Positions 1,306 through 17,141 are shown, numbered from the stretch's first letter. The stretch is DNA of 20,499 nt from an uncultured virus (IMG/VR IMGVR_UViG_3300020196_000017) (IMGVR_UViG_3300020196_000017); one strand, 5' to 3'. Numbers and translations: made by a program. Notes: a model not told the origin generated them from the letters alone.

Positions 1306-1401
1306 ACGTCTTGGGCAGGCGAAGCGTAATGTTTAATCAATGGACTCACTTGGATTTATCCCAGTGGGTCCTACACACCTTCGGTGACGTTAAACTGCCT
1401 A
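1306..1401 (+). ncRNA. Motif A copy 1: H-type pseudoknot with 68-nt structured insertion in L2
   Basis: ACGTC(1306-10) TT GGGCA(1313-17) [1318-1385] GACGT(1386-90) TAAAC TGCCT(1396-1400). Confidence 0.7.
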
Positions 1402-1429
1402 TTCTTTTTGGCTACACAGCATTCAACTC

Positions 1430-1582
1430 ATGGATCTTAATCAATTCGAAAATGACATTCCATCTGATGCACTTGATGCATTAGCTGATCTTGCTTATTT
1501 TCAACGTCAAGCAATGATGGAAGAACTCATTACTCAACCATCTACAACTCATGAAACCATCCTCTACTCCCCAACAACATGA
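1430..1582 (+). CDS. Small acidic hypothetical protein, 50 aa (not in ORF track)
   Basis: MDLNQFENDIPSDALDALADLAYFQRQAMMEELITQPSTTHETILYSPTT; ATG 28 nt after motif A. Confidence 0.6.
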   Translation: MDLNQFENDIPSDALDALADLAYFQRQAMMEELITQPSTTHETILYSPTT

Positions 1583-2003
1583 CATAGTTTTGGTATTGAT
1601 ATTCATTATCATTACCAGCGTTCAGCTCTTCATTCAATTCATTGCAGAACTATGGCATTTCATCCAGTTACCCAAGAAATCGCAGAAGCTTTCGGCTATG
1701 AACCCATGTCCGAAGCTGAGCGTAATCAACAATTCCAGCTCACTCCAAACTACGACTCCATTCAAGACGGAGTCCCAAAAGCTGGAAGTATCTATCTCAA
1801 CAAATGCGGAGTCTATCGCTATTACTGGATCCCAGAAGGTGACAACTACACCGACGAAGAGAAAGGTGACCTCCAAGGCTGGTACGATATCCCGCTCAAC
1901 GAAGACATCGAAGACTGGTGTTTCGATTCCTGCGCTTTCACGCCAGCGGAAGATGAAGTCGAACCTGACCACCCAGACAGCTGGCTTAGGCTTCTCGGTT
2001 TGA
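1551..2003 (+). CDS. Possible membrane protein overlapping 1652..2008 in another frame
   Basis: N-terminal hydrophobic helix IVLVLIFIIITSVQLFIQFIAELWHFI lies mostly outside other ORFs; S/T/K-rich tail overlaps next gene. Confidence 0.4.
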   Translation: MKPSSTPQQHDIVLVLIFIIITSVQLFIQFIAELWHFIQLPKKSQKLSAMNPCPKLSVINNSSSLQTTTPFKTESQKLEVSISTNAESIAITGSQKVTTTPTKRKVTSKAGTISRSTKTSKTGVSIPALSRQRKMKSNLTTQTAGLGFSV

Positions 2004-2008
2004 TTTAA
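1652..2008 (+). CDS. Acidic phage hypothetical protein
   Basis: C-terminal VEPDHPDSWLRLLGLI motif of a type recalled from phage hypotheticals; codon usage like neighbours. Confidence 0.75.
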   Translation: MAFHPVTQEIAEAFGYEPMSEAERNQQFQLTPNYDSIQDGVPKAGSIYLNKCGVYRYYWIPEGDNYTDEEKGDLQGWYDIPLNEDIEDWCFDSCAFTPAEDEVEPDHPDSWLRLLGLI

Positions 2009-2102
2009 GTATTGTTTGCCTACAAGAAACTGTCAATACTGCCCACAGCCTGGATCATTAAAGATCCGGTTGACTCTTCCAAATTCCAACGCACTTCCGA
2101 CA

Positions 2103-2381
2103 ATGCAAAAGTATTTAAATGAGTATTTCGCAGTTTGCGAAGTCTTAGCTGATCTCAAAGCTATTATCCAACGTGAAAATGAACGCCATGAAATGGATCA
2201 ACACCTTGTTCCATCCATGCGTGATCTAATTGAAAACGAAATTATTCCTTTGCTTGAAAATGAGATTGATGCAGATCCAACTCCTCAATATCTCTACGAC
2301 GACACCGGTGGTGAACCTCCGATGACTGCAGCGGAAATACATCACGTTGCCTGGGTGCAACACCAGGCTTTGCACTCGTGA
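2103..2381 (+). CDS. Hypothetical protein
   Basis: ATG 2103 after a G-poor leader preferred over TTG 2016. Confidence 0.7.
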   Translation: MQKYLNEYFAVCEVLADLKAIIQRENERHEMDQHLVPSMRDLIENEIIPLLENEIDADPTPQYLYDDTGGEPPMTAAEIHHVAWVQHQALHS

Positions 2382-2413
2382 TTTTATCTACCGCAAAGTT
2401 AAGAAACCATTAA

Positions 2414-2590
2414 GAAGTAAGGGCTGGTTCGCATTAGAACCTAAGTCTGGTGCGGCCAGACGCCCTTTGCTTCATCATTATTCCGGTTGGGCCTGAACCA
2501 AGCGGAATCCCCTTAAACAATCCACTGGCCAGTGGGTCCCTGCAGGAGACTCACTCATTGTAACCACAGTTACAGGTCCATGGCCAGGGG
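2414..2590. ncRNA. Candidate multi-domain structured RNA
   Basis: Three-way junction 2414-2473, hairpin 2481-2507, multibranch 2525-2587 in a 250-nt intergenic gap. Confidence 0.5.
2559..2574. promoter_or_regulatory. NtcA-like palindrome TGTA-N8-TACA
   Basis: TGTAACCACAGTTACA; could instead be just an RNA hairpin. Confidence 0.4.
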
Positions 2591-2633
2591 TTGACACATC
2601 TGGTAAACTTACAATTCATCACACCATCAACTT

Positions 2634-2852
2634 ATGTCACAGCTCAACGACGCACCCAAGCCCCGCATCCCTGATGCAATGGATTTCCAACGGCTGCAAG
2701 CAATGCAGATCGTTGCCAAGATGAAGGAATCAGCTGACAAATACGGTGTTGGATTCGTTGGTGGATTTGTATCTGCCAACGGTGAAAAATTCATGATGTC
2801 CAACATGTCAGATGAAGACACTTTAATGCTCTTGCCTGAAGATCTCCAATGA
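2634..2852 (+). CDS. Hypothetical protein
   Basis: 72-aa ORF, AC-rich leader, ATGA overlap with next ORF. Confidence 0.75.
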   Translation: MSQLNDAPKPRIPDAMDFQRLQAMQIVAKMKESADKYGVGFVGGFVSANGEKFMMSNMSDEDTLMLLPEDLQ

Positions 2853-3013
2853 AAGAAGTTATTTACTACAAAATCATTTCAATTGATGGACGTGATCACA
2901 CAATTAGTTGTTGTGATTATTCAGAGTCCATTAATGAATTAATTAAAGACAACATTCTTGAAGACAATGATTCAGAAATTGTTGATCACATTTTTCAAGA
3001 GGAATGTACGTGA
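2849..3013 (+). CDS. Small acidic hypothetical protein, 54 aa (not in ORF track)
   Basis: MKEVIYYKIISIDGRDHTISCCDYSESINELIKDNILEDNDSEIVDHIFQEECT; ATGA coupling to upstream stop. Confidence 0.6.
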   Translation: MKEVIYYKIISIDGRDHTISCCDYSESINELIKDNILEDNDSEIVDHIFQEECT

Positions 3014-3094
3014 CTAACAATCAGTCCGAACTAATTGATGCACTTATTGGAGATTTTAACTTTGAACGTGTGTTAACTGAATCATGTACTTGGG

Positions 3095-3304
3095 ATGACT
3101 GACAAATCACCAATTAATTTTGATAGGACAATCCACGGCTTCAATATTACGGAACATGGCATTAAGTCTTATACAAAATCATTCAAGCTTGGACCGTTTC
3201 AGTTAACACTGAACGCCCGTAAGTCTGGTGTCCTTGGGTCGGTATCGATCCCTGGTACTGGCTTGTCCAAGCGAAACATCAACCTATTCAATTTCAACTC
3301 ATGA
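3095..3304 (+). CDS. DUF4236-like small protein
   Basis: KSFKLGPFQLTLN..KSGV..SVSIPGTGLS matches the DUF4236 pattern. Confidence 0.65.
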   Translation: MTDKSPINFDRTIHGFNITEHGIKSYTKSFKLGPFQLTLNARKSGVLGSVSIPGTGLSKRNINLFNFNS

Positions 3305-3516
3305 ATCCAACTGAACTCACACAACTTATTTGCATGATGGAAACACGGGGCGGTTCTTTTGTAGCCGCCATCGGTGCAGCCTTGCGTTATGCAGATCCTG
3401 TCAATCGGCAACGATTGCTTGATGCATTTCCAGATCTTGTAGAAAAGTATGGCCCCAACGGCATGTTTGCTGTTGCTCGTGCCATGGCAGAAGACCTTAT
3501 CTCAAACAAATCATGA
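3301..3516 (+). CDS. Conserved phage hypothetical protein
   Basis: GGSF...IGAAL..ADPxNxxRLxxAFPDLxxKY motif; ATGA overlaps on both sides. Confidence 0.8.
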   Translation: MNPTELTQLICMMETRGGSFVAAIGAALRYADPVNRQRLLDAFPDLVEKYGPNGMFAVARAMAEDLISNKS

Positions 3517-3770
3517 CCGTCCTTGCAATCGAAGACACTTCTATTGATGGATCCCATGTCACAGTTACAGCTGTTGTGGATGAGATGCGTCTCATCTACC
3601 GTGCAACTCAGTTTGAACCTGAGGAATATGCTCCTGCATTATGCAGCGCAAGCTTTGAGCTGGATCCAGAGGAACAAATTCCTGTTGATGAAGATGGCTT
3701 CTGTAGTTATCTTGATCAACGAGATTTGCTCTGGCAACTGGTCGACACTTCCGACTGGGATCTAGATTGA
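3513..3770 (+). CDS. Acidic hypothetical protein
   Basis: 85-aa ORF translationally coupled to previous gene. Confidence 0.75.
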   Translation: MTVLAIEDTSIDGSHVTVTAVVDEMRLIYRATQFEPEEYAPALCSASFELDPEEQIPVDEDGFCSYLDQRDLLWQLVDTSDWDLD

Positions 3771-3775
3771 TTCAC

Positions 3776-3803
3776 TGTCCTGAGCATGACATTAAACTGC
3801 TCA
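3776..3803 (+). ncRNA. Motif A copy 2 (H-type pseudoknot)
   Basis: TGTC CT GAGCA T GACA TTAAAC TGCTC A; 28 nt upstream of ATG 3832. Confidence 0.75.
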
Positions 3804-3831
3804 ACACTACGAACTCAACTCTGAACTCACC

Positions 3832-5580
3832 ATGCAATTCCGACTCCCAGAACAACTGCAAACTGAGTTGCTTGCGTATGATCCCAAGCTTAAAGCTCTA
3901 GCTCGCAGTCAAAATCCTAAGAAACAAACCAAGAAAGCAACGCATCCACTTGGTAATCCAAATGATTTGATTCCAGATGATGTTGTTCGTGCATCGCTGC
4001 TTCAAGATGCAATCGATAATATCAACGGTAATCCTGCCGCAGGTAGGTTTCAAATCTTTACCAAAGTGGTAGATGTTGCTACACCCGAAGCACGTACCGT
4101 TACTGTTGCCATTCTTTACTACTATGAGCAATGCTGGTATGCAGCATGGCTTCCGCCCAAGGGTAAAGAAAATGAGTATCTCTACGGTTATGCATATGCA
4201 TATAAAGATACTGCAACAGCATTGAAAATGGTATCACGCTCACTAAATGAAGAAAGACATGAAAACCTAACAGTTGAAAAGCAATATGGACGCAGCAAAT
4301 TTTTTGTGCGTCAAGCTGTTATTACAATTGAAGATGTGCGTAAATCTAAATATGATCAATCGGTAAGACGTTGGAATATTCCAGGTGTTACTTCGTATTA
4401 TCGAAAATCGCAAGATATGTACAGAGCAATTACTGGATTCGAAGACGCATTGCGTAACAAAATTCCTACCTGGTCTGATTCCAGGGGGATCTTTGATCGT
4501 GTTCGTTGCACTGGAATCGGTAACCTTCTGATTGAAGAAGCAACACCCAATGTAGTTGCTGATCTTGAATCGTGGTTGCCTTCATATGAATCGTTGATGC
4601 AGATCATTGATTCAGATCCAGGGGAGTATCCATATCGTTTGGTAGAGTATCGTTCGTTTGCATCTATTAAGCACATTATTAATACACCGTATTTCCGTAG
4701 GTGGATTCAACAACAATGTGATTTATCCATTGCTACATTCAATAATCCAGCCACAGAATATGCGGCAGATGTCAAGCGTCCGTGGTTGACAATCAAAGCA
4801 TATCTCGGTGCTATCAATAGTATCTACGCAATCTGGCCTAATTGTCCCATTGATTACTATCAAAATAATATTGACGTATTGCTCGGTGTTACTTTCCGTT
4901 TGAATCAAAACGAAAAGACATTTGAATGGCTACGTCAACATATGCCAATTGCATCATTTATCGGCATCTTGTCTAAGTTTTACCAAGAACAATTGCAAGA
5001 GGCTAAAAAAGATAATCGTTTGCACCACCGCCGTAGCTTGTATTATAGCGAACGTTTGGGAAGAAACGTATTTAGCTTCTCTGATCTCAGTGATGCACTA
5101 TCAATGCTGACTCAGGTTCTATCCCATGGAGATCTTGAACCACCTAAGCGTTGGCGCATCGCTGAGTTCCATGATTATGTACAAGGTGAAGCCTGGAAGA
5201 TCAAGAATCCAAATGAAGGTCTGCCCCAAGACTTGTTCCCGCAACCAGTCAAGGTGCAACTTGATGGTGAAACTTGGTTATTCTTCCAGCCATATGACAC
5301 ACACCAGCTGTCAAGCTGGGGTCAAGCTGTTCGTAATTGCATTGGTTCTGCTACGCATTATGCGGAAGACTGCAAGAAGAAGAAACACTTTATTGTTCTG
5401 TGCATGATTGACGGTAAGCCTCAGTTCACCATTCAACTCACCGTTGATATGGGTATGATGTCCGTCAAGCAAATTGCTGGCATTGCCAACAAGAGTCTCA
5501 CGCAAGAACAGAAAGATCAATACACTCAAGCATTTGGCTTGGCCTTGCAATCTCGTAACGCTCAGCTAGTATCTGCGTAG
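3832..5580 (+). CDS. PcfJ-domain-containing protein
   Basis: C-terminal HD...P....L..WG..VRNCIGS..Y...C......IV......P..TIQL......QI.G..N is the PcfJ-like signature; long N-terminal region unrecognised. Confidence 0.75.
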   Translation: MQFRLPEQLQTELLAYDPKLKALARSQNPKKQTKKATHPLGNPNDLIPDDVVRASLLQDAIDNINGNPAAGRFQIFTKVVDVATPEARTVTVAILYYYEQCWYAAWLPPKGKENEYLYGYAYAYKDTATALKMVSRSLNEERHENLTVEKQYGRSKFFVRQAVITIEDVRKSKYDQSVRRWNIPGVTSYYRKSQDMYRAITGFEDALRNKIPTWSDSRGIFDRVRCTGIGNLLIEEATPNVVADLESWLPSYESLMQIIDSDPGEYPYRLVEYRSFASIKHIINTPYFRRWIQQQCDLSIATFNNPATEYAADVKRPWLTIKAYLGAINSIYAIWPNCPIDYYQNNIDVLLGVTFRLNQNEKTFEWLRQHMPIASFIGILSKFYQEQLQEAKKDNRLHHRRSLYYSERLGRNVFSFSDLSDALSMLTQVLSHGDLEPPKRWRIAEFHDYVQGEAWKIKNPNEGLPQDLFPQPVKVQLDGETWLFFQPYDTHQLSSWGQAVRNCIGSATHYAEDCKKKKHFIVLCMIDGKPQFTIQLTVDMGMMSVKQIAGIANKSLTQEQKDQYTQAFGLALQSRNAQLVSA

Positions 5581-5592
5581 TTTCCACGGCTT

Positions 5593-5621
5593 GCCGGTCT
5601 TAGTCTCGTACTAAGGCCGGT
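5593..5621 (+). promoter_or_regulatory. Strong intergenic hairpin
   Basis: GCCGGTCTTAGT-CTCGT-ACTAAGGCCGGT, 12-bp stem, no U tract. Confidence 0.5.
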
Positions 5622-5632
5622 ACCTCGTACTT

Positions 5633-5848
5633 ATGGAATACACTGACGATCAACTCCTTGCCATGGCACTTGGCAATATCGGTGATTTCATCCATGACAA
5701 TTCACCACACTATGTGTTGATCGAAGAAGATTTTCGCAACGATGAGGACTACGACACTTGGGATTATGGCACTGAGCCATTGCCCCAAGATCACACTTGG
5801 CGTCATACATCTATTGATGTTTGTGTAAGTCCAAGTGCGCCTGAGTAG
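5633..5848 (+). CDS. Acidic hypothetical protein whose 3' end overlaps motif B and the tRNA
   Basis: 71-aa ORF; stop TAG lies inside the first 10 nt of the tRNA. Confidence 0.65.
   Translation: MEYTDDQLLAMALGNIGDFIHDNSPHYVLIEEDFRNDEDYDTWDYGTEPLPQDHTWRHTSIDVCVSPSAPE
5794..5837 (+). ncRNA. Motif B copy 2
   Basis: CACTTGG-CGT-CAtACATC-TATT-GATGTtTG-TGTAAGT-CCAAGTG; ends 1 nt before tRNA +1. Confidence 0.7.
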
Positions 5849-5914
5849 CCCAGCGGAAGAGGCAAACGACTTAAAATCGTTCCAGCGTGGGTTCGAATCC
5901 CACCTCAGGTACCA
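5839..5914 (+). tRNA. tRNA-Leu(UAA), 76 nt, encoded CCA, short variable loop
   Basis: Acceptor GCCTGAG/CTCAGGT, discriminator A, CCA; anticodon arm AACGA-CTTAAAA-TCGTT (TAA 5872-5874); T arm GTGGG-TTCGAAT-CCCAC. Confidence 0.95.
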
Positions 5915-5941
5915 ACACACTTCATTTCATTTGGTTTTATC

Positions 5942-6172
5942 ATGCACATTCCTTTGTATAAAGACCCGTTTGAACCTGGTCGTAATTCTTTACTAACCAG
6001 AGAACAAAGAATTTATTTGTACAGACAACGCAAATCTGGAACAACGTTAAAACAGTTATCAATAGAATTAAATATTACAAAAGAACGTATACGACAAATT
6101 TATTTTAAAACAAATAGAATTATTGATTCTATTAAAGTAATTAATAAAGAGAAGTATCAAACAATGGTTTAA
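5942..6172 (+). CDS. Stand-alone sigma-70 region 4-like HTH protein
   Basis: LTREQRIYLYR...GTTLKQLSIELNITKERIRQI parallels sigma region 4 (TLxEIGxxLxVTRERIRQI); visibly AT-richer than neighbours. Confidence 0.7.
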   Translation: MHIPLYKDPFEPGRNSLLTREQRIYLYRQRKSGTTLKQLSIELNITKERIRQIYFKTNRIIDSIKVINKEKYQTMV

Positions 6173-6175
6173 TTT

Positions 6176-6203
6176 CTGGGCGTCCACATGGTGTAAGCCC
6201 CAG
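6176..6203 (+). ncRNA. Motif B copy 3 (minimal)
   Basis: CTGGG-CGT-CCACATGG-TGTAAGC-CCCAG; 27 nt upstream of ATG 6231. Confidence 0.7.
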
Positions 6204-6230
6204 TTTAGTTCAATTCAATTCATTACAACA

Positions 6231-6593
6231 ATGGAATTCCTTTCTGCTTTTCGTCATTTCATCCCTGAGTTCCACGCTTACTCTGATGACGAGCAGCGTT
6301 ACAACCTTGGAGCAACCTGGACAGCGGCTGACGGTCTTAAGGACTATCACAACTTCGAACTACGGTACGTACGTAACTCAGAGCGTCTTGCTCTCCAGGG
6401 TGATCCCCAGCCTGATGGCAGCTGGAAGTATGTGGAACCTTGCGGACGTATTCACACTATGTCCGCAGAACGAGCCAAAGCTTTCATGGAGCAGACTCAT
6501 CATCATGCCACCATCATGTGCGGGATGCTTGATCGCCTGAAAGATGCTGGTCTCATGGAACCGGTCATTGACACGAACGCACAACCTGCCTAA
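6231..6593 (+). CDS. Hypothetical protein
   Basis: 120-aa ORF with AC-rich leader. Confidence 0.8.
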   Translation: MEFLSAFRHFIPEFHAYSDDEQRYNLGATWTAADGLKDYHNFELRYVRNSERLALQGDPQPDGSWKYVEPCGRIHTMSAERAKAFMEQTHHHATIMCGMLDRLKDAGLMEPVIDTNAQPA

Positions 6594-6596
6594 TGT
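6568..6596 (+). promoter_or_regulatory. Sigma70-type promoter candidate
   Basis: TTGACA-17 nt-TAATGT. Confidence 0.5.
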
Positions 6597-6607
6597 GTAG
6601 ACGCACT

Positions 6608-6635
6608 TCCCCCCGTCCCCATCGGGGGGATTTTT
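6608..6635 (+). terminator. Intrinsic terminator candidate
   Basis: TCCCCCCG-TCCCCAT-CGGGGGGA followed by TTTTT. Confidence 0.65.
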
Positions 6636-6644
6636 AATTGCATT

Positions 6645-6968
6645 ATGGAAACCAACTCAAACCCAAACAAAGGTATTGACCTTAACCTTGTCGATCAAGT
6701 TGTAGCTCACATCCCAGCTTGGACTTGGACTGTAGTCAAAAAACAACTGGTTGACGCACTGGTTAATGCAATGCCTACCACGGTGCTTGAGAAATTGACA
6801 GGAGATCCAACCGACGATGATCGTGCATTGGAAATCCTGGATGATTATTACAAAACAAATGACATGAATCAAGAACTAATCATTGATGCGTTCAAAATCT
6901 TGGGTGAAGAGCACACTGTTTATTTGCTTGATGCTTTGCAGCTTGACAAGATCAAAGCGCCACAATGA
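6645..6968 (+). CDS. Hypothetical protein
   Basis: 107-aa ORF, ATGA overlap with next. Confidence 0.75.
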   Translation: METNSNPNKGIDLNLVDQVVAHIPAWTWTVVKKQLVDALVNAMPTTVLEKLTGDPTDDDRALEILDDYYKTNDMNQELIIDAFKILGEEHTVYLLDALQLDKIKAPQ

Positions 6969-7297
6969 AATGCCGCAATTGCAACAGTAAAAACACACGT
7001 GTCATTTGCACAGATCAATTTGATGTAGTAACTAAACGTTACTGCCGGTGTCTTGATTGCAACACTAGCTTTCGCACTGTCGAACGCTACGAAGTTGCTA
7101 AGCCTATACCGTTGAATCCAGCTCCCAACATTGGAGTAGACAACCCAAACTCAAGGCTTACCACCAGGGAAATCCTAATGATCAGACACTTACATCAAAA
7201 AGGATTAAGCAATGGTCAACTAGCAATTCGTTTTAATCAATGCCGTAGTACCATCAGTCGTGTTGTCAACTACAAAACTTACACAAACATTAAGTAA
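6965..7297 (+). CDS. NrdR/Ogr-like zinc ribbon fused to HTH, putative regulator
   Basis: MKCRNC...TRV...KRYCRCLDCNTSFRTVER (two CxxC) plus RLT..EI..IR.L...GLS..QLA.RF...RSTISRVV. Confidence 0.7.
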   Translation: MKCRNCNSKNTRVICTDQFDVVTKRYCRCLDCNTSFRTVERYEVAKPIPLNPAPNIGVDNPNSRLTTREILMIRHLHQKGLSNGQLAIRFNQCRSTISRVVNYKTYTNIK

Positions 7298-7302
7298 TTT
7301 AC

Positions 7303-7602
7303 ATGACTACTAAAGAACAACCTAAATTCAACATTGGTGATCGCGTAGCCGAGAAACCAAAGCCACGTGCAATTTTGACGAATAAACCTGAGGTCAGGGA
7401 AAAGATTAAACCTTTTACCACTCAAAGGTATGGCACTGTACTTGATACGGTATATAAGCCGGTTTCCAATGGAAAGCGGGTTCCATACGTAAAGATTATG
7501 TGGGATTATTCCAGCTCTCCATCAGTTCATTCACAGAATAGAATCTGTCTTCAACAAGATTTGGCTGAGGAAATGGACAACTACTTCACTGCAACTTCAT
7601 GA
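7303..7602 (+). CDS. Hypothetical protein (possible small beta-barrel)
   Basis: KFNIGDRV...GTV...YVKIMWD pattern. Confidence 0.7.
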   Translation: MTTKEQPKFNIGDRVAEKPKPRAILTNKPEVREKIKPFTTQRYGTVLDTVYKPVSNGKRVPYVKIMWDYSSSPSVHSQNRICLQQDLAEEMDNYFTATS

Positions 7603-7603
7603 C

Positions 7604-8236: not shown

Positions 8237-8243
8237 TTACGAC

Positions 8244-8966: not shown

Positions 8967-8968
8967 GA

Positions 8969-10118: not shown

Positions 10119-10135
10119 ATTAAAGAAACTTACTT

Positions 10136-10369
10136 ATGTCTTACATTATTGCCACTTGGAAAGGTACCACTCCTTACGGAGTAAGGGCCGATAGAGACTC
10201 CAATTCATTTCAACTTATTCCGCTAGTATCAGACGTAGCCCTGAGCCAGGTGTACTCCTCGCCATACCAATCAGGAGCACAGTCAATACTTAAGTGGATC
10301 AAAGAAAATGACACAGTTCTCTCCGGTGAAGAATTCGAAGTTTGCGATGAAGGACGTTTCCGGAAGTGA
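10136..10369 (+). CDS. Hypothetical protein
   Basis: 77-aa ORF directly upstream of and overlapping the polymerase start. Confidence 0.7.
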   Translation: MSYIIATWKGTTPYGVRADRDSNSFQLIPLVSDVALSQVYSSPYQSGAQSILKWIKENDTVLSGEEFEVCDEGRFRK

Positions 10370-12173
10370 GCGGTGGTACGTTGTTGATATTGAAACAGAT
10401 AACCTTTACGACAAAGTTACAAAAATATATTGTATTGTTCTCCACGATGTCCAAGGAGAACAGACTTTTACTTATGGGCCTGATCGTATTGCTGACGGTC
10501 TTGAGCATATGGCTAACGCTCATGTGCTCATTGGTCACAACATCATCTTTTACGATCTGCCGGTTATAAGAAAACTTTATCCTTTTTATACATTTAAAGC
10601 AGCTCGACTTATCGACACACTCATTTGCACTCGACTTATCTGGCCTAAGGAAGTTCTTTATGATCTCGACACAGAACAATATACGGAGGTTCCAAAGAAT
10701 CTCTGTGGTTCAGCCTCGCTTAAAGCATGGGGCTACCGATTGGCAGACAATAAAATTGAATTTAAAGACTTCACGAAATTCTCTAACGAAATGTTGGAGT
10801 ACTGCGTCCAGGACGTTAATGTCACCACTCAACTCTTTAGGCTTGTTCAAAAGCAAAACTATAGAGAGTCGGCATTACGGCTTGAACATGATTTTGCCAT
10901 CTCCATTAATGAACAAATTAGAACAGGTTTTCCTTTTGATGTTGATGCATGCCTTGATCTTGTGGATGTGCTTAGAACAAGACAAACGGAACTCGAAAGC
11001 AATTTAAAAGAAATCTTTCCGCCTATTAAACATGAAGAAGTATTTATTCCCAAAGTAAATAACGCTAAACGTGGTTATGTTAAAGGCGAACCATTCACTA
11101 AAGTCTTGTACCAAGAATTTAATCCTGGCTCTCGTGAACAAATTGTTGAAAGACTTAAAAACAAATACGGGTGGTCCCCTGCAAAAACTACGGATAAAGG
11201 CAATCCGGTGCTTAATGACGATGTACTGGAAGCACTTCCATACCCCGAAGCAAAACCACTTGCGGAATACATGCTTGTCAAGAAACGTCTTGGGCAAATA
11301 GCTGATGGATCCAACGCATGGTTAAAGCTTGTCAACAATGACACCGGTTGTATTCACGGTGATGTAATTACTAACGGCTGCATTACGGGTCGTTGTGCGC
11401 ACCGTAATCCCAACATGGGTCAGGTACCTGCAAGTTATTCGCCATATGGAAAAGAATGCCGATCATTATTCCATACGCCCCAGGGATGGGCATTGATTGG
11501 TGTTGATGCCAAAGCGTTGGAACTCAGATGCCTTGCTGGTTATTTGGCACATTGGGATAGTGGTGAATACGCACGTATTGTTACTGATGAATCAATTGAC
11601 ATTCATGTTTATAACCAAGAGCGATTTGGTGTAGCTACCAGGGATATCAGTAAGCGTTTACTCTATGGGCTTCTATATGGGTGTGGTGCATTGAAGGCTG
11701 GCACTATTATTGATCCGAATGAAAAAGATGAAATTGTTCTGCGTCGTATGGGAGGTAACGCAATTAATTCATTCATGAATAGTGTGCCTGCTTTGCGTCA
11801 GCTTAAACAAAAGATTGAATCAACTATTCAAGAACGTAATTACTTGCGTGGGCTTGATGGCCGTGCACTTTTTTGTAGATCTGAATTCAAAGGATTAAAT
11901 GTTTTATTGCAATCATCTGGTGCATTAATTATGAAACAAGTTGTTATTGAACTTCACAAAACTATGTATGAAGAAGGGTATGTCTACGGCATGGACTGGC
12001 AGCAAAATGCCATGATCCATGACGAACTTCAATTGTCTTGTCCGTCTCACATGATTGACACTTTGAAACAAGAAGCGCTTGATTCATTTCCAAAAGCTCA
12101 GCAATTCTTTGGATTTCAATGTCTTATTGAGGGTGATGCCCATGTAGGATCCTGCTGGGCTGAGACGCATTAG
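10347..12173 (+). CDS. polA: Family A DNA polymerase, T7 gp5-like (3'-5' exonuclease + polymerase)
   Basis: ExoI DIET, ExoII GHNIIFYD, ExoIII YCVQDV, TGR, motif A DAKALELR, motif B RDISKRLLYGLLYG, motif C IHDE; start 10347 or 10308. Confidence 0.96.
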   Translation: MKDVSGSERWYVVDIETDNLYDKVTKIYCIVLHDVQGEQTFTYGPDRIADGLEHMANAHVLIGHNIIFYDLPVIRKLYPFYTFKAARLIDTLICTRLIWPKEVLYDLDTEQYTEVPKNLCGSASLKAWGYRLADNKIEFKDFTKFSNEMLEYCVQDVNVTTQLFRLVQKQNYRESALRLEHDFAISINEQIRTGFPFDVDACLDLVDVLRTRQTELESNLKEIFPPIKHEEVFIPKVNNAKRGYVKGEPFTKVLYQEFNPGSREQIVERLKNKYGWSPAKTTDKGNPVLNDDVLEALPYPEAKPLAEYMLVKKRLGQIADGSNAWLKLVNNDTGCIHGDVITNGCITGRCAHRNPNMGQVPASYSPYGKECRSLFHTPQGWALIGVDAKALELRCLAGYLAHWDSGEYARIVTDESIDIHVYNQERFGVATRDISKRLLYGLLYGCGALKAGTIIDPNEKDEIVLRRMGGNAINSFMNSVPALRQLKQKIESTIQERNYLRGLDGRALFCRSEFKGLNVLLQSSGALIMKQVVIELHKTMYEEGYVYGMDWQQNAMIHDELQLSCPSHMIDTLKQEALDSFPKAQQFFGFQCLIEGDAHVGSCWAETH

Positions 12174-12226
12174 CTAATGACAAATCAACTAACTCCTGAA
12201 CAAATCGATGCATTTCTAGATTTGCC

Positions 12227-12382
12227 ATGTCAGTTAAAAAACCCGGATTGTTTGAACGTATTCAAATGTCAGCTGGCAAGATGCCATTATGGAACTGGGC
12301 AGACAATGTAACTGTCGGACTGGCAGCGCTTGTCGTCTTGGTTGCCGTTGTGGCTGTGCTGCTAGTAACTTGTAAGGTTTAG
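12227..12382 (+). CDS. Small membrane protein, 51 aa (not in ORF track)
   Basis: MSVKKPGLFERIQMSAGKMPLWNWADNVTVGLAALVVLVAVVAVLLVTCKV. Confidence 0.55.
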   Translation: MSVKKPGLFERIQMSAGKMPLWNWADNVTVGLAALVVLVAVVAVLLVTCKV

Positions 12383-12408
12383 TTACTAGTTCATTTGTTT
12401 TGTTACTT

Positions 12409-12435
12409 CGTCCCAGGTATGACGTTAAACTGCCT
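12409..12435 (+). ncRNA. Motif A copy 4
   Basis: CGTC CC AGGTA T GACG TTAAAC TGCCT; 20 nt upstream of the ssb ATG. Confidence 0.75.
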
Positions 12436-12455
12436 TCTACTACTCTTTTGTATCT

Positions 12456-13268
12456 ATGAACTTTGTAAGCATTTGCGCACAAACAACTGAGGAGCCTCGC
12501 GAGGTTTACGTCAGTGCCACATCTACTGCAATTCGTTGCAATGTTTTGTTGCCTCCAGTAGGGAACAAAGCACCTACTCCAATTGAACTTAACGTTTATG
12601 GAAAAAACTCAGAGCGGTTTGCTCGTACAACGAAGCACTCCAAGGTCTTCATTCATGGCGCAAAATTACGCTTTGACCTTGACTCCAGAACGTATTCATT
12701 GCATGGAGGAGTTATCGCTACGGTTGATGAAACGTTCCCTATCTTTAACACAGTCATCCTCAGTGGCCGTTGCGTTAAAGACATCTATCGCGATGACGAA
12801 CGCGCTTTCAAAACAACCACTGATGGATTGATGGTCTGCAATCAAACCTTATCAGTAAGTACTGGTAAGAACCAAGCAGATCTGTTTAACTTTTATGCAA
12901 TTAATACAAGTCAAGACAAGTTAAACAATGCGGAACTACTTGTTAATTTCACGCGTAAAGGTGTTGGCCTCACGATTAATGGCCGTTTGGTTACTGATGA
13001 ATGGAATGATTCTCAAACCAAAGAACGCAAGCATGCTACCAAGATCCAATTGGTAAGTATGACCCTGGCTCCCAAGGCTTCGCTGCCTAATAAAGATGGT
13101 GAAGGTCGGGAGATTAAACCGCAGACAACAGTTAACGGTGCAGGGAAAGTTGCTTCGCTTTGGGGCGGAAAAACATTGGATGACAATCCTTGGGATCAGA
13201 CGAGCGGGCTACCGGATTTGCCTGGTCAGTACGGTGCTGCACCTGATCTTGACAACGAACCTTTCTAA
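12456..13268 (+). CDS. ssb: Single-stranded DNA-binding protein with two tandem OB folds
   Basis: MNFVSIC...EPR and FNTVILSGR..KD...GVGLTINGRL..DEW.D..T.ERK repeats; G/P-rich linker; acidic tip DLDNEPF. Confidence 0.85.
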   Translation: MNFVSICAQTTEEPREVYVSATSTAIRCNVLLPPVGNKAPTPIELNVYGKNSERFARTTKHSKVFIHGAKLRFDLDSRTYSLHGGVIATVDETFPIFNTVILSGRCVKDIYRDDERAFKTTTDGLMVCNQTLSVSTGKNQADLFNFYAINTSQDKLNNAELLVNFTRKGVGLTINGRLVTDEWNDSQTKERKHATKIQLVSMTLAPKASLPNKDGEGREIKPQTTVNGAGKVASLWGGKTLDDNPWDQTSGLPDLPGQYGAAPDLDNEPF

Positions 13269-13281
13269 TTAACTACTCACC

Positions 13282-13545
13282 ATGACTTCTGAATCACTAA
13301 TTGAATTCCAACGGGGAATTGACTTTGAGGAATTAACGCTTCAAGATTGTATTGCTATTAATTTTTATTTGGATAACGTTGTAGAACTTTGTGTTAAAGG
13401 AGAAACAAATGCAGATCAAGTAAGAAATAACTTAGATCTATTAGCCAAATCTGCATATTCTATTGCAGATGTTTTTTGTCAAATGCGTAAAAGAATACGA
13501 GAATCAATTGAAGAAACAAATGAAGAAGAAAGCGAGGTTGCGTAA
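13282..13545 (+). CDS. Hypothetical protein
   Basis: 87-aa ORF, TAATG coupling to next. Confidence 0.7.
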   Translation: MTSESLIEFQRGIDFEELTLQDCIAINFYLDNVVELCVKGETNADQVRNNLDLLAKSAYSIADVFCQMRKRIRESIEETNEEESEVA

Positions 13546-13778
13546 TGGATAATTCAAAACTTGTGTTTAGTTACACTGATGAAGATTCAAAGATTACTTA
13601 TGAATCGATGGGTGTAACAACAGATGAAGTAATGCATCACGTTGTTTGTTTTCTGTTGTCTATGGGTTACGCACGGGAGAGTATTCACTCAGCCATGCAA
13701 GAAATCGTAGAGGAACATGAAGACTATTTACGAAATGAGCCTAACTATAAACTTGAATTGCCGCCAGACGTAGTCTGA
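13545..13778 (+). CDS. Hypothetical protein
   Basis: 77-aa coupled ORF. Confidence 0.7.
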   Translation: MDNSKLVFSYTDEDSKITYESMGVTTDEVMHHVVCFLLSMGYARESIHSAMQEIVEEHEDYLRNEPNYKLELPPDVV

Positions 13779-13782
13779 AGGC

Positions 13783-13810
13783 ACGTCCTGGGATGACGTT
13801 AAAAGCATCC
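13783..13810 (+). ncRNA. Motif A copy 5 (variant)
   Basis: ACGTC CT GGGAT GACGT TAAAA GC ATCC; P2 shifted (GGAT/ATCC); 21 nt upstream of ATG 13832. Confidence 0.55.
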
Positions 13811-13831
13811 ATTCATCACAACGAAATCACC

Positions 13832-14902
13832 ATGAGTGAACCTACGATTGCTGAATTAGTTGATTCCACTACTAACTACTTGAAACCTACTAAGACTATG
13901 ACTGTGAAGAAAACTTTTGCCCTTGCCACCCGTGGCCTGGATTCTTTCAAACTTTTCCAAGATAAGCAATTCGTCTCCGGCTACCAAAACCTCGTCACCA
14001 TCCAACCCCTTAACAAATCGAAGACACGAGGTTGGTTCGTGCGGAAGTCAGATCTGGACACTTGTGGATGGAACGCCACTGAAAGTGACTTTGCTAAAGG
14101 TTCAGTCATTTGGGACTACAAGCAAACTTTCGGTATGGCTCCCAATACTTCAGTGGAAGAAGGGCTCAATTTTGTTGAGCCTCGAATTCAAATCCTTCTG
14201 CGTTCCCCGCTTATGGTAGAAGAAGCTAAAGGAATGAGGCAGACAATTGGTACCTTTGATAATCCAGAGGTTAAAGAACTTTGGGAAGCTGACAAGATTG
14301 CAGCTGATCTTGAAAAAAGTAAGGGTAAAATGCATGATCGTAAGTACAGTGTACGTACAAAATACTTGGTGTACGTTCTGACCCAGGACAATAAGCGAGC
14401 CCATAAGATCCCAATGGTTCTTACCTTAAAAGGATTGAATGGTACTGATATTTCCGAAAAGGTTCGGATGTATGAAAAAGAAATGTCCAAGTGTTTAAGC
14501 AAAGCTTTGGATTCAGAAATTCCTCTTGCATTCAATGAAAAGTTCTATGCCACTACCGTATTTGCTCCGGTACTTGCCAATGAGATGCGTGGCGCCAACA
14601 ACGTTGAGATCTGCGCAATTGAATCTTTTGACATCCCTGATTACAGCAGTCAAGAAGACGCAATCGAATCATTGAATCGCATGTCGATTCCTGATGAAGA
14701 TCGCGAATCTACTTGGAAGTATCAGGAGATGTTCAATGACTACATCAACCAACATGCACGGCAAGACGCTGAAAAGCTCGGTGGTGCTTATGGAATTAAA
14801 GATGGTGTAGAGATTCTTCCAGCGTCCCGAACTACCGATCTGGTTGATGTAAGGGCTCTTCCTGCTCGGGATGAAACTACGGGTGAAGACCTGTCGTTTT
14901 AA
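13832..14902 (+). CDS. DUF5895-like protein
   Basis: PRIQILLRSPL...YLVYVL..DN...H.IP..LTLKG..G pattern recalled from cyanobacterial DUF5895 proteins; ATG 13793 lies inside motif A so 13832 preferred. Confidence 0.6.
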   Translation: MSEPTIAELVDSTTNYLKPTKTMTVKKTFALATRGLDSFKLFQDKQFVSGYQNLVTIQPLNKSKTRGWFVRKSDLDTCGWNATESDFAKGSVIWDYKQTFGMAPNTSVEEGLNFVEPRIQILLRSPLMVEEAKGMRQTIGTFDNPEVKELWEADKIAADLEKSKGKMHDRKYSVRTKYLVYVLTQDNKRAHKIPMVLTLKGLNGTDISEKVRMYEKEMSKCLSKALDSEIPLAFNEKFYATTVFAPVLANEMRGANNVEICAIESFDIPDYSSQEDAIESLNRMSIPDEDRESTWKYQEMFNDYINQHARQDAEKLGGAYGIKDGVEILPASRTTDLVDVRALPARDETTGEDLSF

Positions 14903-15165
14903 TCTTTAGTTTCGGTAGGGAACTGGGGATTAGCAATGTCATCTTGTTCAATAGCAACGTTGTTGAAGATGAACATATCTTGTACTAATCCCCTGATTAC
15001 TCCCTGACGATTAGTGGCGATCTGCGCAAGCAAGGTCGCCATTTCTTTTAAAGCACTTACAGAGTTACATTCTTCAATGGATCTCTTAATCTTTTCCAGC
15101 CAAAACTTATCATCTAAGGTTGGTTCAATTTGGAACTGGTTAAGAGGTGCATATTTAATTTCCAT
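14899..15165 (-). CDS. nblA: NblA-like phycobilisome degradation adaptor candidate
   Basis: PTLDDKFWLEKIKRSIEECNSVSALKEMATLLAQIATNRQGVIRGLV parallels the NblA helix-loop-helix pattern (LxLEQxFxL..helix2). Confidence 0.5.
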   Translation of the reverse strand: MEIKYAPLNQFQIEPTLDDKFWLEKIKRSIEECNSVSALKEMATLLAQIATNRQGVIRGLVQDMFIFNNVAIEQDDIANPQFPTETKD

Positions 15166-15227
15166 GGGAACTCCAGGGGATAGCTAATTCTAATCCCACA
15201 TAAAAACTTAAATTTTAACTTTATGTT

Positions 15228-15241
15228 GTATTAAGAATTAC
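15228..15241. promoter_or_regulatory. NtcA-like box in the divergent region upstream of the nblA-like gene
   Basis: tGTA-TTAAGAAT-TAC. Confidence 0.35.
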
Positions 15242-15242
15242 C

Positions 15243-15374
15243 ATGATTATGCCATTGCCTATTGCATCGCTTGGGATCTCAGTTGTCTTAATTGTTTTTG
15301 GTCTTAGACGCTTGTCCAAACCAAAAGTTTCTGCTACACTCGATCCGTCAGAAGAAGACGATCTTTTCATCTGA
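15243..15374 (+). CDS. Small membrane protein, 43 aa (not in ORF track)
   Basis: MIMPLPIASLGISVVLIVFGLRRLSKPKVSATLDPSEEDDLFI. Confidence 0.5.
   Translation: MIMPLPIASLGISVVLIVFGLRRLSKPKVSATLDPSEEDDLFI
15312..15340 (+). promoter_or_regulatory. Sigma70-type promoter candidate with extended -10
   Basis: TTGTCC-17 nt-TACACT with TGn extension. Confidence 0.45.
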
Positions 15375-15392
15375 CTTAATTCAACACAACCC

Positions 15393-16460
15393 ATGGCTAC
15401 TCAACTCAACACACAATTAAATACTGCGCAACAATCTATTTATTCCCGTACTAACATTCATCGTGCGTTCCAGGATTTTGATGATTCGGATGTCGCCGCA
15501 ATTAATTTGCGAGCTGATACTTGCATCGTGGTGTATCGCGATGGCGCTGAGCGTTGCTATCCCACGCAACCAATTAAAGATGCCTTTGTCTCCTACACCC
15601 ACCGTCTCAAAGATTTCTTCTCATACTTAGGACCTAACTATCGTGGCCCTTCCATTTGGCACAACAACAGCTACATCCTCTTTAAGGGCTGGGCATATCA
15701 ACATGCTCTTGGGCGTCTTTCGTCCAACGCACAGTTGCAGGCTGCCTGGGCAGACCGATTTATCCACCTTACTGATGAAGAAAAACTTAAAGCTTTACTT
15801 CAGTCGGACCAAACTGACCTTGGGTATCTCGTTGCTCCTGACGGCTTCCGTTACATTGAATCGCCTGAGCTTGGGTCTCAGTTTGACGAATCGGATACTG
15901 ATGATGAAGATGTTGAAACTGGAAAGGAAGCTGCGCCGGCACCTCAGCCATATTGCTCATGCGGTTCCTTCCAAAGGCAACTGAATAACTTAGCTGACTT
16001 CCAGGGGGAGATCGCTGGTTATCAGCCATGGTGTATTCATCTGACTTGGTTCAAGAAGTACAGAGAGTTGCTTTGTGAACGGGCACGGGTGCGCTCTGAA
16101 TCCCGTGGGCAGGCTCCTGATAAATGCGTGGCTTGGTGGTACGCACCGCCGTCTGACCACACCAGTGATGGACGTTTTGTGTTGTTACACACCAAATCTG
16201 GTGCACAGGCTCCGCTGACGCACTGGCGGCCCTACAAACCAAAGGAAGTGTTCACACAGAACCATGCCTGGGAACTGTTCTTCAATATGATGGCGGCAGG
16301 GTACGTGCCATTTCCCGGTACCTCACTACCTCAACTCTCATCAATCACAAAGAAAAATGGGCCAAAACTTGAATCACGATCTGGAATTGCAAATATGGAT
16401 GGAGAAGTATCAAGAGAAAAGGAGGAGGCCTATACTGCAGCAGATCACCACAAACGGTGA
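15393..16460 (+). CDS. SWIM zinc-finger-containing protein
   Basis: YCSCGSF...WCIHL = CxCx(n)CxH. Confidence 0.7.
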   Translation: MATQLNTQLNTAQQSIYSRTNIHRAFQDFDDSDVAAINLRADTCIVVYRDGAERCYPTQPIKDAFVSYTHRLKDFFSYLGPNYRGPSIWHNNSYILFKGWAYQHALGRLSSNAQLQAAWADRFIHLTDEEKLKALLQSDQTDLGYLVAPDGFRYIESPELGSQFDESDTDDEDVETGKEAAPAPQPYCSCGSFQRQLNNLADFQGEIAGYQPWCIHLTWFKKYRELLCERARVRSESRGQAPDKCVAWWYAPPSDHTSDGRFVLLHTKSGAQAPLTHWRPYKPKEVFTQNHAWELFFNMMAAGYVPFPGTSLPQLSSITKKNGPKLESRSGIANMDGEVSREKEEAYTAADHHKR

Positions 16461-16545
16461 GCTTGACTTAACTAAACTGACTGACTACCTACGCAATCTC
16501 GAAGATGACATCGACGGAATCCTCGACAGAATACAATGTGATTGA
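16357..16545 (+). CDS. Hypothetical protein
   Basis: 62-aa ORF overlapping the tail of 15393..16460. Confidence 0.5.
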   Translation: MGQNLNHDLELQIWMEKYQEKRRRPILQQITTNGELDLTKLTDYLRNLEDDIDGILDRIQCD

Positions 16546-16732
16546 TCCAGCATCCTGGGTTTATAAACTAAATCTGGAATGTGTGGATGAAGAAGATGGA
16601 TCTATGACCATTCATATTGAATGGAATGAATTAGATCCAGATCTTGCTTACTGGACTTCACTTGGTTCAGAAGGTCAAGAAGAGTTTATTATGACTGCAT
16701 TACGCAATGCTTTGGAGCAGTATGGCGCTTGA
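16505..16732 (+). CDS. Acidic hypothetical protein
   Basis: 75-aa ORF in the gene chain. Confidence 0.65.
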   Translation: MTSTESSTEYNVIDPASWVYKLNLECVDEEDGSMTIHIEWNELDPDLAYWTSLGSEGQEEFIMTALRNALEQYGA

Positions 16733-17105
16733 CACCTATGGTCTTTCTAACGATCAATACAAAAAAATCTTTTTACAAAAAGCTGAGTTTACTATTGCTC
16801 TTTTAACGGCACTCAAAGTCAAAGCTGAGGCCCAGGGTCATAGGCTTGACAATTACACCGACAAATTTATCTGGGATCTGTTCCAGGAGGTTGCATACGC
16901 TTCTGATGAAGAAGCTCGTGTGTACCAAAAGGAACATGACCCTGAGTCGGTCAAGAAGCACAGCTTTGACTATGGCGTTATTGCTACCAGGGAAGAACTG
17001 ATGGGAGAAATTCAATCTGTCTCTGCCAAAGTTGAAGCACTTGCTGATTATGTTGGCCAGTTGACTGAGAGCATTAAGGAGGGCTTGACAGAGCAGGTAG
17101 ACTGA
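16722..17105 (+). CDS. Hypothetical protein with coiled-coil C-terminus
   Basis: ATG 16722 overlaps upstream gene end. Confidence 0.7.
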   Translation: MALDTYGLSNDQYKKIFLQKAEFTIALLTALKVKAEAQGHRLDNYTDKFIWDLFQEVAYASDEEARVYQKEHDPESVKKHSFDYGVIATREELMGEIQSVSAKVEALADYVGQLTESIKEGLTEQVD

Positions 17106-17112
17106 TCGTCCT

Positions 17113-17141
17113 ACGTCCTGAGCAAGACGTTAAACTGCTTA
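17113..17141 (+). ncRNA. Motif A copy 6
   Basis: ACGTC CT GAGCA A GACGT TAAAC TGCTT A; 24 nt upstream of ATG 17166. Confidence 0.75.

Follow-up and report, generated by a model that had tools for sequence, protein, structure and literature searches.

A small covarying RNA pseudoknot in the leaders of phage genes shares its letters with coremin and may hinder 5'-to-3' RNA decay

Exoribonuclease-resistant RNAs (xrRNAs) have so far been a hallmark of eukaryotic RNA viruses. One form, coremin (xrRNA-C), has the motif sequence GUCCGAAGACGUUAAACUAC (PMC10520033) and is described from beny-, cucumo- and many other RNA viruses (PMC6546385, PMC10520033). We analyzed a stretch of 20,499 nucleotides (nt) of DNA from an uncultured virus (IMG/VR IMGVR_UViG_3300020196_000017), hereafter the window, for an H-type RNA pseudoknot of about 27 nt (the knot) that recurs between its genes, and compared it with coremin and with other described RNA elements.

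In published descriptions, coremin is built from a 3-bp hairpin (hp1), whose YGAD loop is closed by a C-G pair, then a conserved linker of 10 nt and, as an obligatory part, a second hairpin, hp2 (PMC6546385, PMC10520033). The linker positions A15-A17, C18 and U19 are reported to be unchangeable (PMC6546385). Resistance to the exoribonuclease Xrn1 needs hp2 directly after the spacer (PMC6546385, PMC10520033), and Xrn1 is halted one nucleotide before hp1 with no protein involved (PMC10520033). According to the same source, coremin blocks scanning ribosomes, and natural loops of 5-8 nt exist, among which the octaloops escape the loop consensus. Coremin is also reported to promote -1 frameshifting in vitro (PMC10321173). 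A related form, the Watson-Crick coremin, came from a selection experiment and two RNA-virus sequences; it has a canonical 3-bp second stem, S2 (nt 6-8 with nt 18-20), and a 4-nt loop with G5, and hp2 is described as dispensable in it, at least for frameshift stimulation (PMC10321173). The text of PMC10520033 makes no mention of phages, bacteria or DNA viruses, and the string 'bacteri' is absent from that of PMC10321173.

A preliminary description of the window had listed six copies of the knot. All six were present at the positions given, on the + strand and between + strand open reading frames (ORFs) (Table 1). Each copy fits an H-type pseudoknot with a first stem P1 of the form NGUC/GACN, a loop L1 of two pyrimidines, a second stem P2 of 4-5 bp and a loop L3 of UUAAAC. 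Five copies are contiguous elements of 27-28 nt, in which P1a (4-5 nt), 2-3 pyrimidine-rich nt, P2a (4-5 nt), 0-1 nt, P1b, (U)UAAAC and P2b follow one another. The remaining one, copy 1, consists of two halves around a 68-nt self-folding insert; an extra hairpin had been noted earlier for one of the six. The insert has a minimum free energy (MFE) of -22.2 kcal/mol (z -2.7) with paired ends. When 200,000 upstream stretches were simulated, 57 contained a matching 5' half within 130 nt by chance. The UAAA loop had been called invariant; UUAAAC, or UAAAC where P1 has 5 bp, was found in five of the six copies, and copy 5 carries UAAAAGC. The P2 pairings listed earlier omitted GGAT/ATCC of copy 5, whose orthologues in related phages show either the same variant or the standard form.

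A descriptor scan of the window gave four matches on the + strand and none on the - strand; 300 Markov simulations averaged 0.2 matches. A covariance model that encodes P2 only was built from 122 viral-contig sequences, two of them copies from a 64.6-kb viral record (G001) that are identical to window copies. In the window, this model found matches at 3774, 17112, 9168 and 12407 with E <= 1.2e-5, the variant copy at 13782 with E 0.089, and the 3' half of copy 1 at 1385; no match below E 0.69 was found on the - strand. The descriptor match at 6115-6141 was dropped as an extra copy for want of covariance-model support at E <= 10.

P2 pairing was further examined with a pattern, GTCCT-N6-GAC-N-TTAAAC, that fixes the P1 core, L1 and L3 and leaves P2 free. 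Among 138 matches in viral contigs, five, four, three and two of the five P2 pairs could form in 108, 20, 5 and 5 matches, respectively; this set is dominated by S-EIVl-like phages, and its counts are not independent events. Bacterial and archaeal genomes gave 120 matches, with all five pairs in 30, four in 23 and the other 67 chance-like. Five pairs are expected by chance in 0.74% of matches, or about one per set.

Across the 122 distinct viral sequences, 95.0% of cells were paired as compared with 81.3% after shuffling (0 of 500 shuffles as high), and double-sided changes occurred in 167 cells versus 55.2 +/- 5.7 in the shuffles. P2 was paired in 93.4% of cells, and shifting the pairing register lowered the paired cells to 23-53%. 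Four of the five P2 pairs and the outer P1 pair changed on both sides into several Watson-Crick types. The inner P1 pairs also swap, to CGAC/GUCG in Staphylococcus phage B166 and to UCUC/GAGA in Vibrio phages. About 80 of 1098 cells were G-U pairs, which are mismatched on the opposite strand. The earlier proposal of an H-type pseudoknot with both stems covarying, sense-only G-U pairs and an invariant A-rich L3 was thus borne out by the covariation, which strongly supports the fold as real.

The same data bear on a DNA-level site, either a palindromic GTC-N8-GAC operator of the NtcA/CRP type or a phage promoter. Taken by itself, P1 forms an inverted repeat whose arms are 8 bp apart, the copies lie upstream of genes, and the record of phage B166 annotates a BPROM 'promoter' across its copy. 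However, P2 is interleaved with P1 and covaries, which a DNA-binding dimer cannot explain, and the G-U cells would be mismatches on the other strand. The copies also show a strict strand bias, and sigma-70-like sites numbered 19 in the window against 39.9 expected, none adjoining a copy. The same motif, moreover, is reported to function as RNA in RNA viruses (PMC10520033). We consider a DNA-level site very improbable. Words resembling a -10 box 5' of three copies were stop-codon contexts of the upstream genes, unconserved in relatives as judged by eye, and sigma-54 and NtcA spacings, checked by hand, did not fit.

The window is of phage origin. The family A DNA polymerase that it encodes shares 75.7% identity with the counterpart in Synechococcus phage S-EIVl, and this similarity suggests a cyanobacterial host. 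Positions 1-15162 are 99% identical to G001, which was used as a near-identical longer relative, and the two diverge afterwards. Past 15162, the comparison of window 15163-20499 with G001 59315-64632 gave just patches of 74-77% identity; in the G001 counterpart of copy 6, P2 is fully compensated (GGTCA/TGACC) and L3 reads GTAAAC.

Ten related loci were gathered via the SSB protein, not via the motif. The knot was present about 20-25 nt 5' of ssb in all ten, with diverged flanks and SSB identity down to 57%. UUAAAC was invariant across the ssb-leader alignment, and the GUC/GAC hairpin with a C-G (or U-A) closing pair was found in all six window copies and in 9/9 aligned ssb leaders. Model matches lay on the coding strand in the window (5/5), S-EIVl (7/7), G001 (5/5) and relatives (17/17 and 8/8, taking the ssb strand). 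S-EIVl carries seven copies between 25.9 and 43.0 kb, and the five copies of G001 all fall within 47.9-61.5 kb, the first 40 kb of that record being free of them. These positions, together with those in the window and the relatives, indicate that the knot is confined to the early/replication module.

Within the window, nearly all genes are oriented on the + strand, and the knot always lies 5' of a start codon there and in related phages. The distance from the upstream stop codon to the knot was 4-8 nt in four of six window copies and 5-11 nt in five of seven S-EIVl copies. In these same copies the typical gap is filled wholly: a stop codon, 4-11 nt, the knot, 20-29 nt and a start codon. Knots occupy 6 of the 19 window gaps of at least 35 nt. 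The first ATG lay 19-29 nt past the knot in 59 of 107 viral copies. For five of the window copies a spacing of 20-28 nt had been proposed; the measured distances from P2b to the ATG, over all six, were 29, 20, 20, 21, 25 and 29 nt, two of which exceed that range. The names given to the downstream genes (PcfJ, GP88, SSB, DUF5895 and Sipho_Gp157) hold. Folding of the spacers gave MFE values of 0 to -2.5 kcal/mol over all six and 0 to -1.6 kcal/mol in five. They had also been described as G-poor and lacking a Shine-Dalgarno (SD) sequence. This is so, with 8.7% G and an SD-like word in 0/6 knot-bearing leaders, but the feature is genome-wide and not specific to the knot: the remaining 34 window leaders have 13.8% G and an SD-like word in 4/34, so that 4 of 40 window genes carry one. 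These findings suggest that initiation is SD-independent throughout this phage. The leaders of the window are C/A-rich, and CAACTC-type words recur just 5' of the ATG.

When compared with coremin, the knot shares GUC, the first loop C, GAC, G, UUAAAC and the next U. The two have in common the GUC/GAC hairpin, the C-G closing pair and a pyrimidine first in the loop, as well as small size, repeated copies per genome and an intergenic or untranslated-region (UTR) location. The positions essential in coremin (A15-A17, C18, U19 and the closing pair) are the ones that are invariant in the phage knot. U follows UUAAAC in 113 of the 122 viral sequences, and the final AC of coremin is replaced by letters of P2b. 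The ssb leader of one relative (L020) reads CGUC-CGAAAU-GACG-UUAAACUAC; this is the published hexaloop form YGNNAD, letter-for-letter up to CUAC. Copies with a hexaloop are also frequent in long viral contigs, and some of these have a 3-bp Watson-Crick stem (for example, loop ..CCA.. with UGG). Both observations point to a continuum from coremin to the octaloop form with a 5-bp stem.

The knot also differs from coremin. The window loops have 8 nt (7 in copy 5), for example CUGAGCAU, as compared with 4-6 nt in coremin. They begin with Y and end in A-D as in the YGAD/YGNNAD consensus, but have U or C instead of G as the second letter. Their second stem has 4-5 Watson-Crick pairs, whereas coremin uses a non-canonical contact between the loop and CUAC. 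The knot is found in double-stranded DNA phages and bacteria 5' of genes and not in 3' UTRs, and its nuclease resistance is putative. With the Watson-Crick coremin it shares a canonical antiparallel loop-linker pseudoknot with compensatory changes in both; unlike that form, its S2 has 4-5 bp and begins after C18, and its L1 is CU, CC or UU. Because of the different loop consensus, the other S2 register and the lack of hp2, we set the knot apart from plain coremin membership. Judged from the sequences, it is probably a long-loop, fully Watson-Crick variant of the coremin fold.

Matches to canonical 4-nt-loop coremin in viral contigs were not taken further: 48 of 93 continue TAC, those checked lying in contigs of 1-10 kb, and the long-contig matches continue ATT or ACT and seem to be one conserved phage sequence, not coremin. 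Class 3 xrRNA, as described in PMC11702639, has a different fold and is irrelevant here. In one phage family with the hexaloop element (L387, L441, L455-L488), a strong intrinsic terminator follows the element 9-27 nt later; such a pair could yield a small stable RNA with both ends protected. A general link between knot and terminator was not found, with terminators downstream of 16/106 and upstream of 12 hexaloop copies, and downstream of 2/129 octaloop copies.

The knot is not limited to this lineage. A BLAST search of one copy against cultured phages matched 137 records, including 83 from Staphylococcus and 27 from Vibrio (two records were inspected); the other hosts included Nostoc, Microcystis, Synechococcus, Bacillus, Lactobacillus, Moorella, Mycobacterium, Arthrobacter and Paracoccus. 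At four viral loci of the same sequence (L028, L051, L072 and L079), the knot lies 3 nt 5' of a tRNA. The downstream ORF fragments of bacterial copies (28 scanned of 41) included six Rrf2 regulators, one ribosomal protein L11 and six phage scaffold/prohead-protease-like proteins, three of the latter above the Pfam cut-off. The Rrf2 association is chromosomal and non-phage. The start codon of bacterial and prophage copies lay 8-106 nt away, with SD-like words in 18/33. In cyanobacterial chromosomes, the model matched 0 of 121 at E <= 0.01, an uninformative result, with 59 candidates per genome scored under strict filters. The earlier idea of an undescribed phage system does not hold as it stands, since the knot occurs in many unrelated viral contigs, cultured phages and bacterial chromosomes and shares its conserved letters with coremin. 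The absence of a named Rfam family, on the other hand, was confirmed: cmscan of the window (E <= 1), of 3760-3840 (E <= 10) and of 20 bacterial and viral copies (E <= 1) returned only tRNAs and noise at these lax thresholds. In the literature we found no description of the knot from phages or bacteria; large automated catalogues of phage RNA motifs exist, such as PMC10690425, and may contain it unnamed.

Several individual copies were inspected. In the B166 record, the knot lies 9 nt 3' of a head-morphogenesis gene and 60 nt 5' of the ORF preceding the capsid gene. The copy of Vibrio phage D456 g1 is well formed and antisense to tiny annotated ORFs nearby; either these ORFs are on the wrong strand or the copy is exceptional. 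A giant-virus contig (L024) from a metagenome-assembled genome (MAG) carries a copy with AGUC/GACU and GAAUA/UGUUU, followed after 2 nt by a 9-bp hairpin resembling hp2, an arrangement that the window copies do not have. At six loci (L160, L196, L203, L225, L249 and L273) from Omnitrophota, Planctomycetes and other MAGs, the knot lies 8-37 nt 5' of Rrf2-family genes.

This breadth bears on the proposal that the knot is an operator for an RNA-binding protein (the phage SSB, a RegA-like repressor or a host protein) controlling a six-gene regulon. The arrangement ahead of ssb, a 5' pseudoknot and then an unstructured tract, is similar to the gene 32 operator of phage T4, the knot precedes ssb in all ten relatives, and its unpaired letters are highly conserved. 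However, these letters are also kept in Staphylococcus, Nostoc and Microcystis phages, in Omnitrophota and Planctomycetes chromosomes, in the giant-virus contig and in eukaryotic RNA viruses, and no phage protein is common to all carriers. In addition, coremin is reported to act protein-free in vitro (PMC10520033). A regulon operator for SSB or another phage protein is improbable, as the same letters recur in hosts belonging to different domains of life and also where the knot precedes tRNAs or genes unrelated to one another. The likeness to the gene 32 leader of T4 and RB69 consists in a 5' H-type pseudoknot and then an unstructured tract before a phage ssb; that element is specific to gene 32 and depends on gp32, whereas the phage knot is found ahead of five other genes as well and in hosts that are unrelated.

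Hosts without a common specific RNA-binding protein thus keep the same unpaired letters, which implies that the constraint comes from the three-dimensional fold of the RNA itself. The knot would therefore function by its fold alone or with a universal machine, either as a roadblock to a nuclease or as a roadblock or landing structure for the ribosome. Of the functions originally offered, a 5' exonuclease (RNase J) block fits best, a translation-linked role is possible and a small-ligand sensor is unlikely. We tentatively favor, at somewhat below even confidence, a protein-independent roadblock in the leader against RNase J or RNase E, halting their 5'-to-3' decay of the message, by analogy with coremin.

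In the proposed sequence of events, the knot would be transcribed within a long + strand message and would fold compactly, with a 4-5 bp P1 around the invariant GUC/GAC core, an L1 of 2-3 pyrimidines and the UUAAAC of L3 running along P1. It would then form a mechanical, direction-dependent barrier that needs no protein, as in coremin. Enzymes tracking from the 5' end (RNase J and, possibly, RNase E in its 5'-end-dependent mode) would come to a halt at the 5' edge of P1. The downstream cistron would be left with a 5' end capped by the knot and an unstructured leader of 20-29 nt free for ribosomes. Six early/replication genes (PcfJ-like, GP88-like, ssb, DUF5895-like, the Gp157 unit and a small ORF) would thereby each be served by a stable message with a lifetime of its own. 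What is observed is the fold, along with its conservation, placement and sequence match to coremin; that a bacterial nuclease stalls and that mRNA life is affected would follow by analogy.

A nuclease block is favored over a ribosome-directed role for several reasons. Coremin has demonstrated activity of this kind, and an unrelated xrRNA, that of flaviviruses, blocks Bacillus subtilis RNase J1 in vitro (PMC5760640). Cyanobacteria have RNase J, and Synechococcus elongatus, used as a control, gave a match. Where a copy precedes a tRNA, its role cannot lie in translation. The shape expected of a stabilizer is a knot placed right at a trimmed 5' end, with a free leader after it. RNase J (TIGR00649) scored above the cut-off in 19 of 30 motif-bearing genomes and in 18 of 49 genomes with chance matches (Fisher p 0.036, kinship ignored and assemblies incomplete), a weak association that lends weak support.

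Other observations weigh against the nuclease roadblock. At E <= 1e-20, RNase J was present in 21/30 and 24/49 of these genomes (p 0.10, kinship again ignored), and 9-11 of the 30 motif-bearing genomes, mostly small Omnitrophota and Planctomycetes assemblies, gave no RNase J match. Copies occur in Vibrio phages (27 records matched, of which one inspected copy was well formed), and to our knowledge gammaproteobacteria lack RNase J. These Vibrio copies and RNase J-negative genomes indicate that RNase J is not the sole target; RNase E, which scans from the 5' end, is a possible alternative. The second stem of the knot occupies nt 19-23, as compared with nt 18-20 in the published form, and the loop is not YG..AD. 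The hairpin hp2, which coremin needs against Xrn1, is absent in five of the six window copies, and the 32 nt downstream of viral copies have a mean of -2.6 kcal/mol versus -4.1 kcal/mol after chance matches, i.e., they are less structured. Finally, the tight spacing of 19-29 nt between knot and ATG could mean a direct role in initiation.

Such a role belongs to the main competing reading, a ribosome-directed one, in which the knot would be a barrier to terminating or sliding ribosomes from upstream that insulates adjacent cistrons from each other, or a platform or standby site, set at a constant distance from the start codon, that aids loading of the 30S subunit on SD-less leaders. Coremin itself blocks scanning ribosomes and stimulates -1 frameshifting (PMC10520033, PMC10321173), and no partner other than the ribosome is shared by bacteria and eukaryotes. 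The ATG lies at 19-29 nt in 6/6 window copies as well as in the 59/107 viral copies, and the knot-bearing leaders are all without SD-like words. The knot stands 4-8 nt past a stop codon in four of six window copies, and a structure at this distance sits at the mRNA entrance of the ribosome. However, 34 other G-poor window leaders carry no knot, and since 30 of them are also without an SD-like word, the knot is dispensable for SD-less initiation. The bacterial and prophage copies, with their variable distance to the start and frequent SD-like words, do not fit well either. Nothing is translated where the knot lies 3 nt before a tRNA, and no slippery sites or overlapping frames were seen at the window copies. 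On balance, we consider a ribosome-directed function rather unlikely, though it retains appreciable weight.

The nuclease roadblock can also be put in a more specific form. As a possibility that we hold with a little more reserve, the knot may be a genuine exoribonuclease-resistant RNA. It would then be the first class of xrRNA that is native to phages and bacteria, would have its fold in common with the coremin of plant, fungal and insect RNA viruses and would halt RNase J or scanning RNase E. Flavivirus xrRNAs (class 1/2) provide the precedent of a protein-independent mechanical block to 5'-3' exonucleases, including RNase J1 (PMC5760640), as proposed for the knot; they are much larger three-way-junction ring folds with no sequence similarity to it. 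A different kind of likeness is offered by the aprE leader stem-loop, ermC and the cryIIIA STAB-SD, which are 5' stabilizers of Gram-positive bacteria. They lie near the 5' end and shield the message from RNase J, as the knot is proposed to do, but they are simple hairpins or bound ribosomes and not a conserved pseudoknot family.

In size and topology, the knot resembles the class I preQ1 aptamer, which is likewise a compact H-type pseudoknot, about 30 nt long, and has an A-rich strand lying in the groove of P1, and a small riboswitch-like ligand sensor would be in keeping with its invariant unpaired nucleotides and broad occurrence in bacteria and phages. The searches returned no Rfam match, even at E <= 10 on 81 nt, and preQ1-I (RF00522) specifically was not matched at E <= 1 in the window or E <= 10 on the 81 nt. 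The downstream genes are unrelated to one another (ssb, PcfJ, GP88, scaffold proteins, Rrf2, L11 and tRNA) and include none for queuosine. With unstructured spacers, there is no alternative pairing or expression platform, phage genomes carry 5-8 copies each, and an L2 of 0-1 nt probably leaves little room for a pocket. A ligand sensor is accordingly quite improbable.

Another small fold, the 5' domain of the pistol self-cleaving ribozyme, likewise has a P1 hairpin, a loop pseudoknot and an A-rich linker. The topology and GUUAAA-type linker of the knot resemble this 5' half, and ribozymes are common in phage intergenic regions, which counts in favor of a ribozyme part. No Rfam ribozyme, including pistol (RF02679), was matched, however, and the unstructured downstream spacers cannot form the further helices or a cleavage junction; we regard this reading as highly improbable.

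If the nuclease roadblock is correct, phages would carve decay-proof, separately lived cistron messages out of polycistronic transcripts, and a single RNA device of about 27 nt would act against unrelated 5'-3' nucleases in all domains of life. A block to RNase J or RNase E would give phages and bacteria a general means of setting the lifetimes of individual cistrons. It would also explain a very common, uncatalogued intergenic motif and provide a tiny portable mRNA stabilizer for synthetic biology, and it would leave two histories to weigh for DNA phages, bacteria, giant viruses and RNA viruses, exchange of the fold or its reinvention. The idea can be tested directly in cultured carriers, among them S-EIVl and phages of Nostoc, Microcystis and Staphylococcus. 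The family merits an Rfam entry even if its function is directed at the ribosome.

Table 1. Knot copies and other located features (window coordinates unless a record is named)
Feature	Position	Strand	Composition and score	Surroundings
Copy 1, 5' half	1306-1317	+	P1a ACGTC 1306-1310, L1 TT, P2a GGGCA 1313-1317	8 nt past TGA 1295-1297
Copy 1, insert	1318-1385	+	68 nt at the L2 junction; self-contained closed hairpin	
Copy 1, 3' half	1386-1400	+	P1b GACGT, L3 TAAAC, P2b TGCCT; partial model match 1385-1395	29-nt spacer, ATG 1430
Copy 2	3776-3802	+	TGTC-CT-GAGCA-T-GACA-TTAAAC-TGCTC; covariance model 46.4 bits, E 3.1e-8	5 nt past stop 3768-3770; 29 nt 5' of ATG 3832 (PcfJ-like gene)
Copy 3	9170-9196	+	TGTC-CT-(A)AGCA-T-GACA-TTAAAC-TGTT; one G-U pair in P2; 36.7 bits, E 3.2e-6	20 nt 5' of ATG 9217 (GP88-like gene); family-typical start MKLLKF at 9259
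Copy 4	12409-12435	+	CGTC-CC-AGGTA-T-GACG-TTAAAC-TGCCT; one U-G pair; 34 bits, E 1.2e-5	20 nt 5' of ATG 12456 (ssb)
Copy 5, variant	13783-13810	+	ACGTC-CTG-GGAT-GACGT-TAAAAGC-ATCC; no L2, 7-nt L3; 15.2 bits, E 0.089	4 nt past stop 13776-13778; 21 nt 5' of ATG 13832 (DUF5895-like gene)
Copy 6	17113-17140	+	ACGTC-CT-GAGCA-A-GACGT-TAAAC-TGCTT; one G-U pair; 45 bits, E 6.1e-8	7 nt past stop 17103-17105; 25 nt 5' of ATG 17166 (40-aa ORF ahead of Gp157-like gene)
Spacers, knot to start	1401-1429, 3803-3831, 9197-9216, 12436-12455, 13811-13831, 17141-17165	+	G-poor, essentially unstructured	
A-U hairpin	9197-9219		7 bp	6 nt 3' of copy 3; takes in ATG 9217
tRNA gene	5839-5911	+	58.8 bits, E 1.2e-10	within early gene array; no knot adjoining
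Terminator-like hairpins	6608-6630, 19121-19140	+	8 pairs, 6-7 G-C, T-run	no knot adjoining
Staphylococcus phage B166 copy	L279 1201-1226 = KP893289.1 21042-21067		P1 CGAC/GUCG	
Vibrio phage D456 g1 copy	L280 801-827		UCUC/GAGA + GAGCA/UGCUC	

The family-typical start of the GP88-like protein lies downstream of the annotated ATG, which may be the wrong start codon. The A-U hairpin that takes in this ATG is kept in two related contigs (L012 and L151) with a compensatory A-U to U-A swap, and it may be an hp2-like partner of copy 3. Elsewhere in the window, a tRNA gene was detected, and the two terminator-like hairpins listed in Table 1 are the strongest intrinsic ones.

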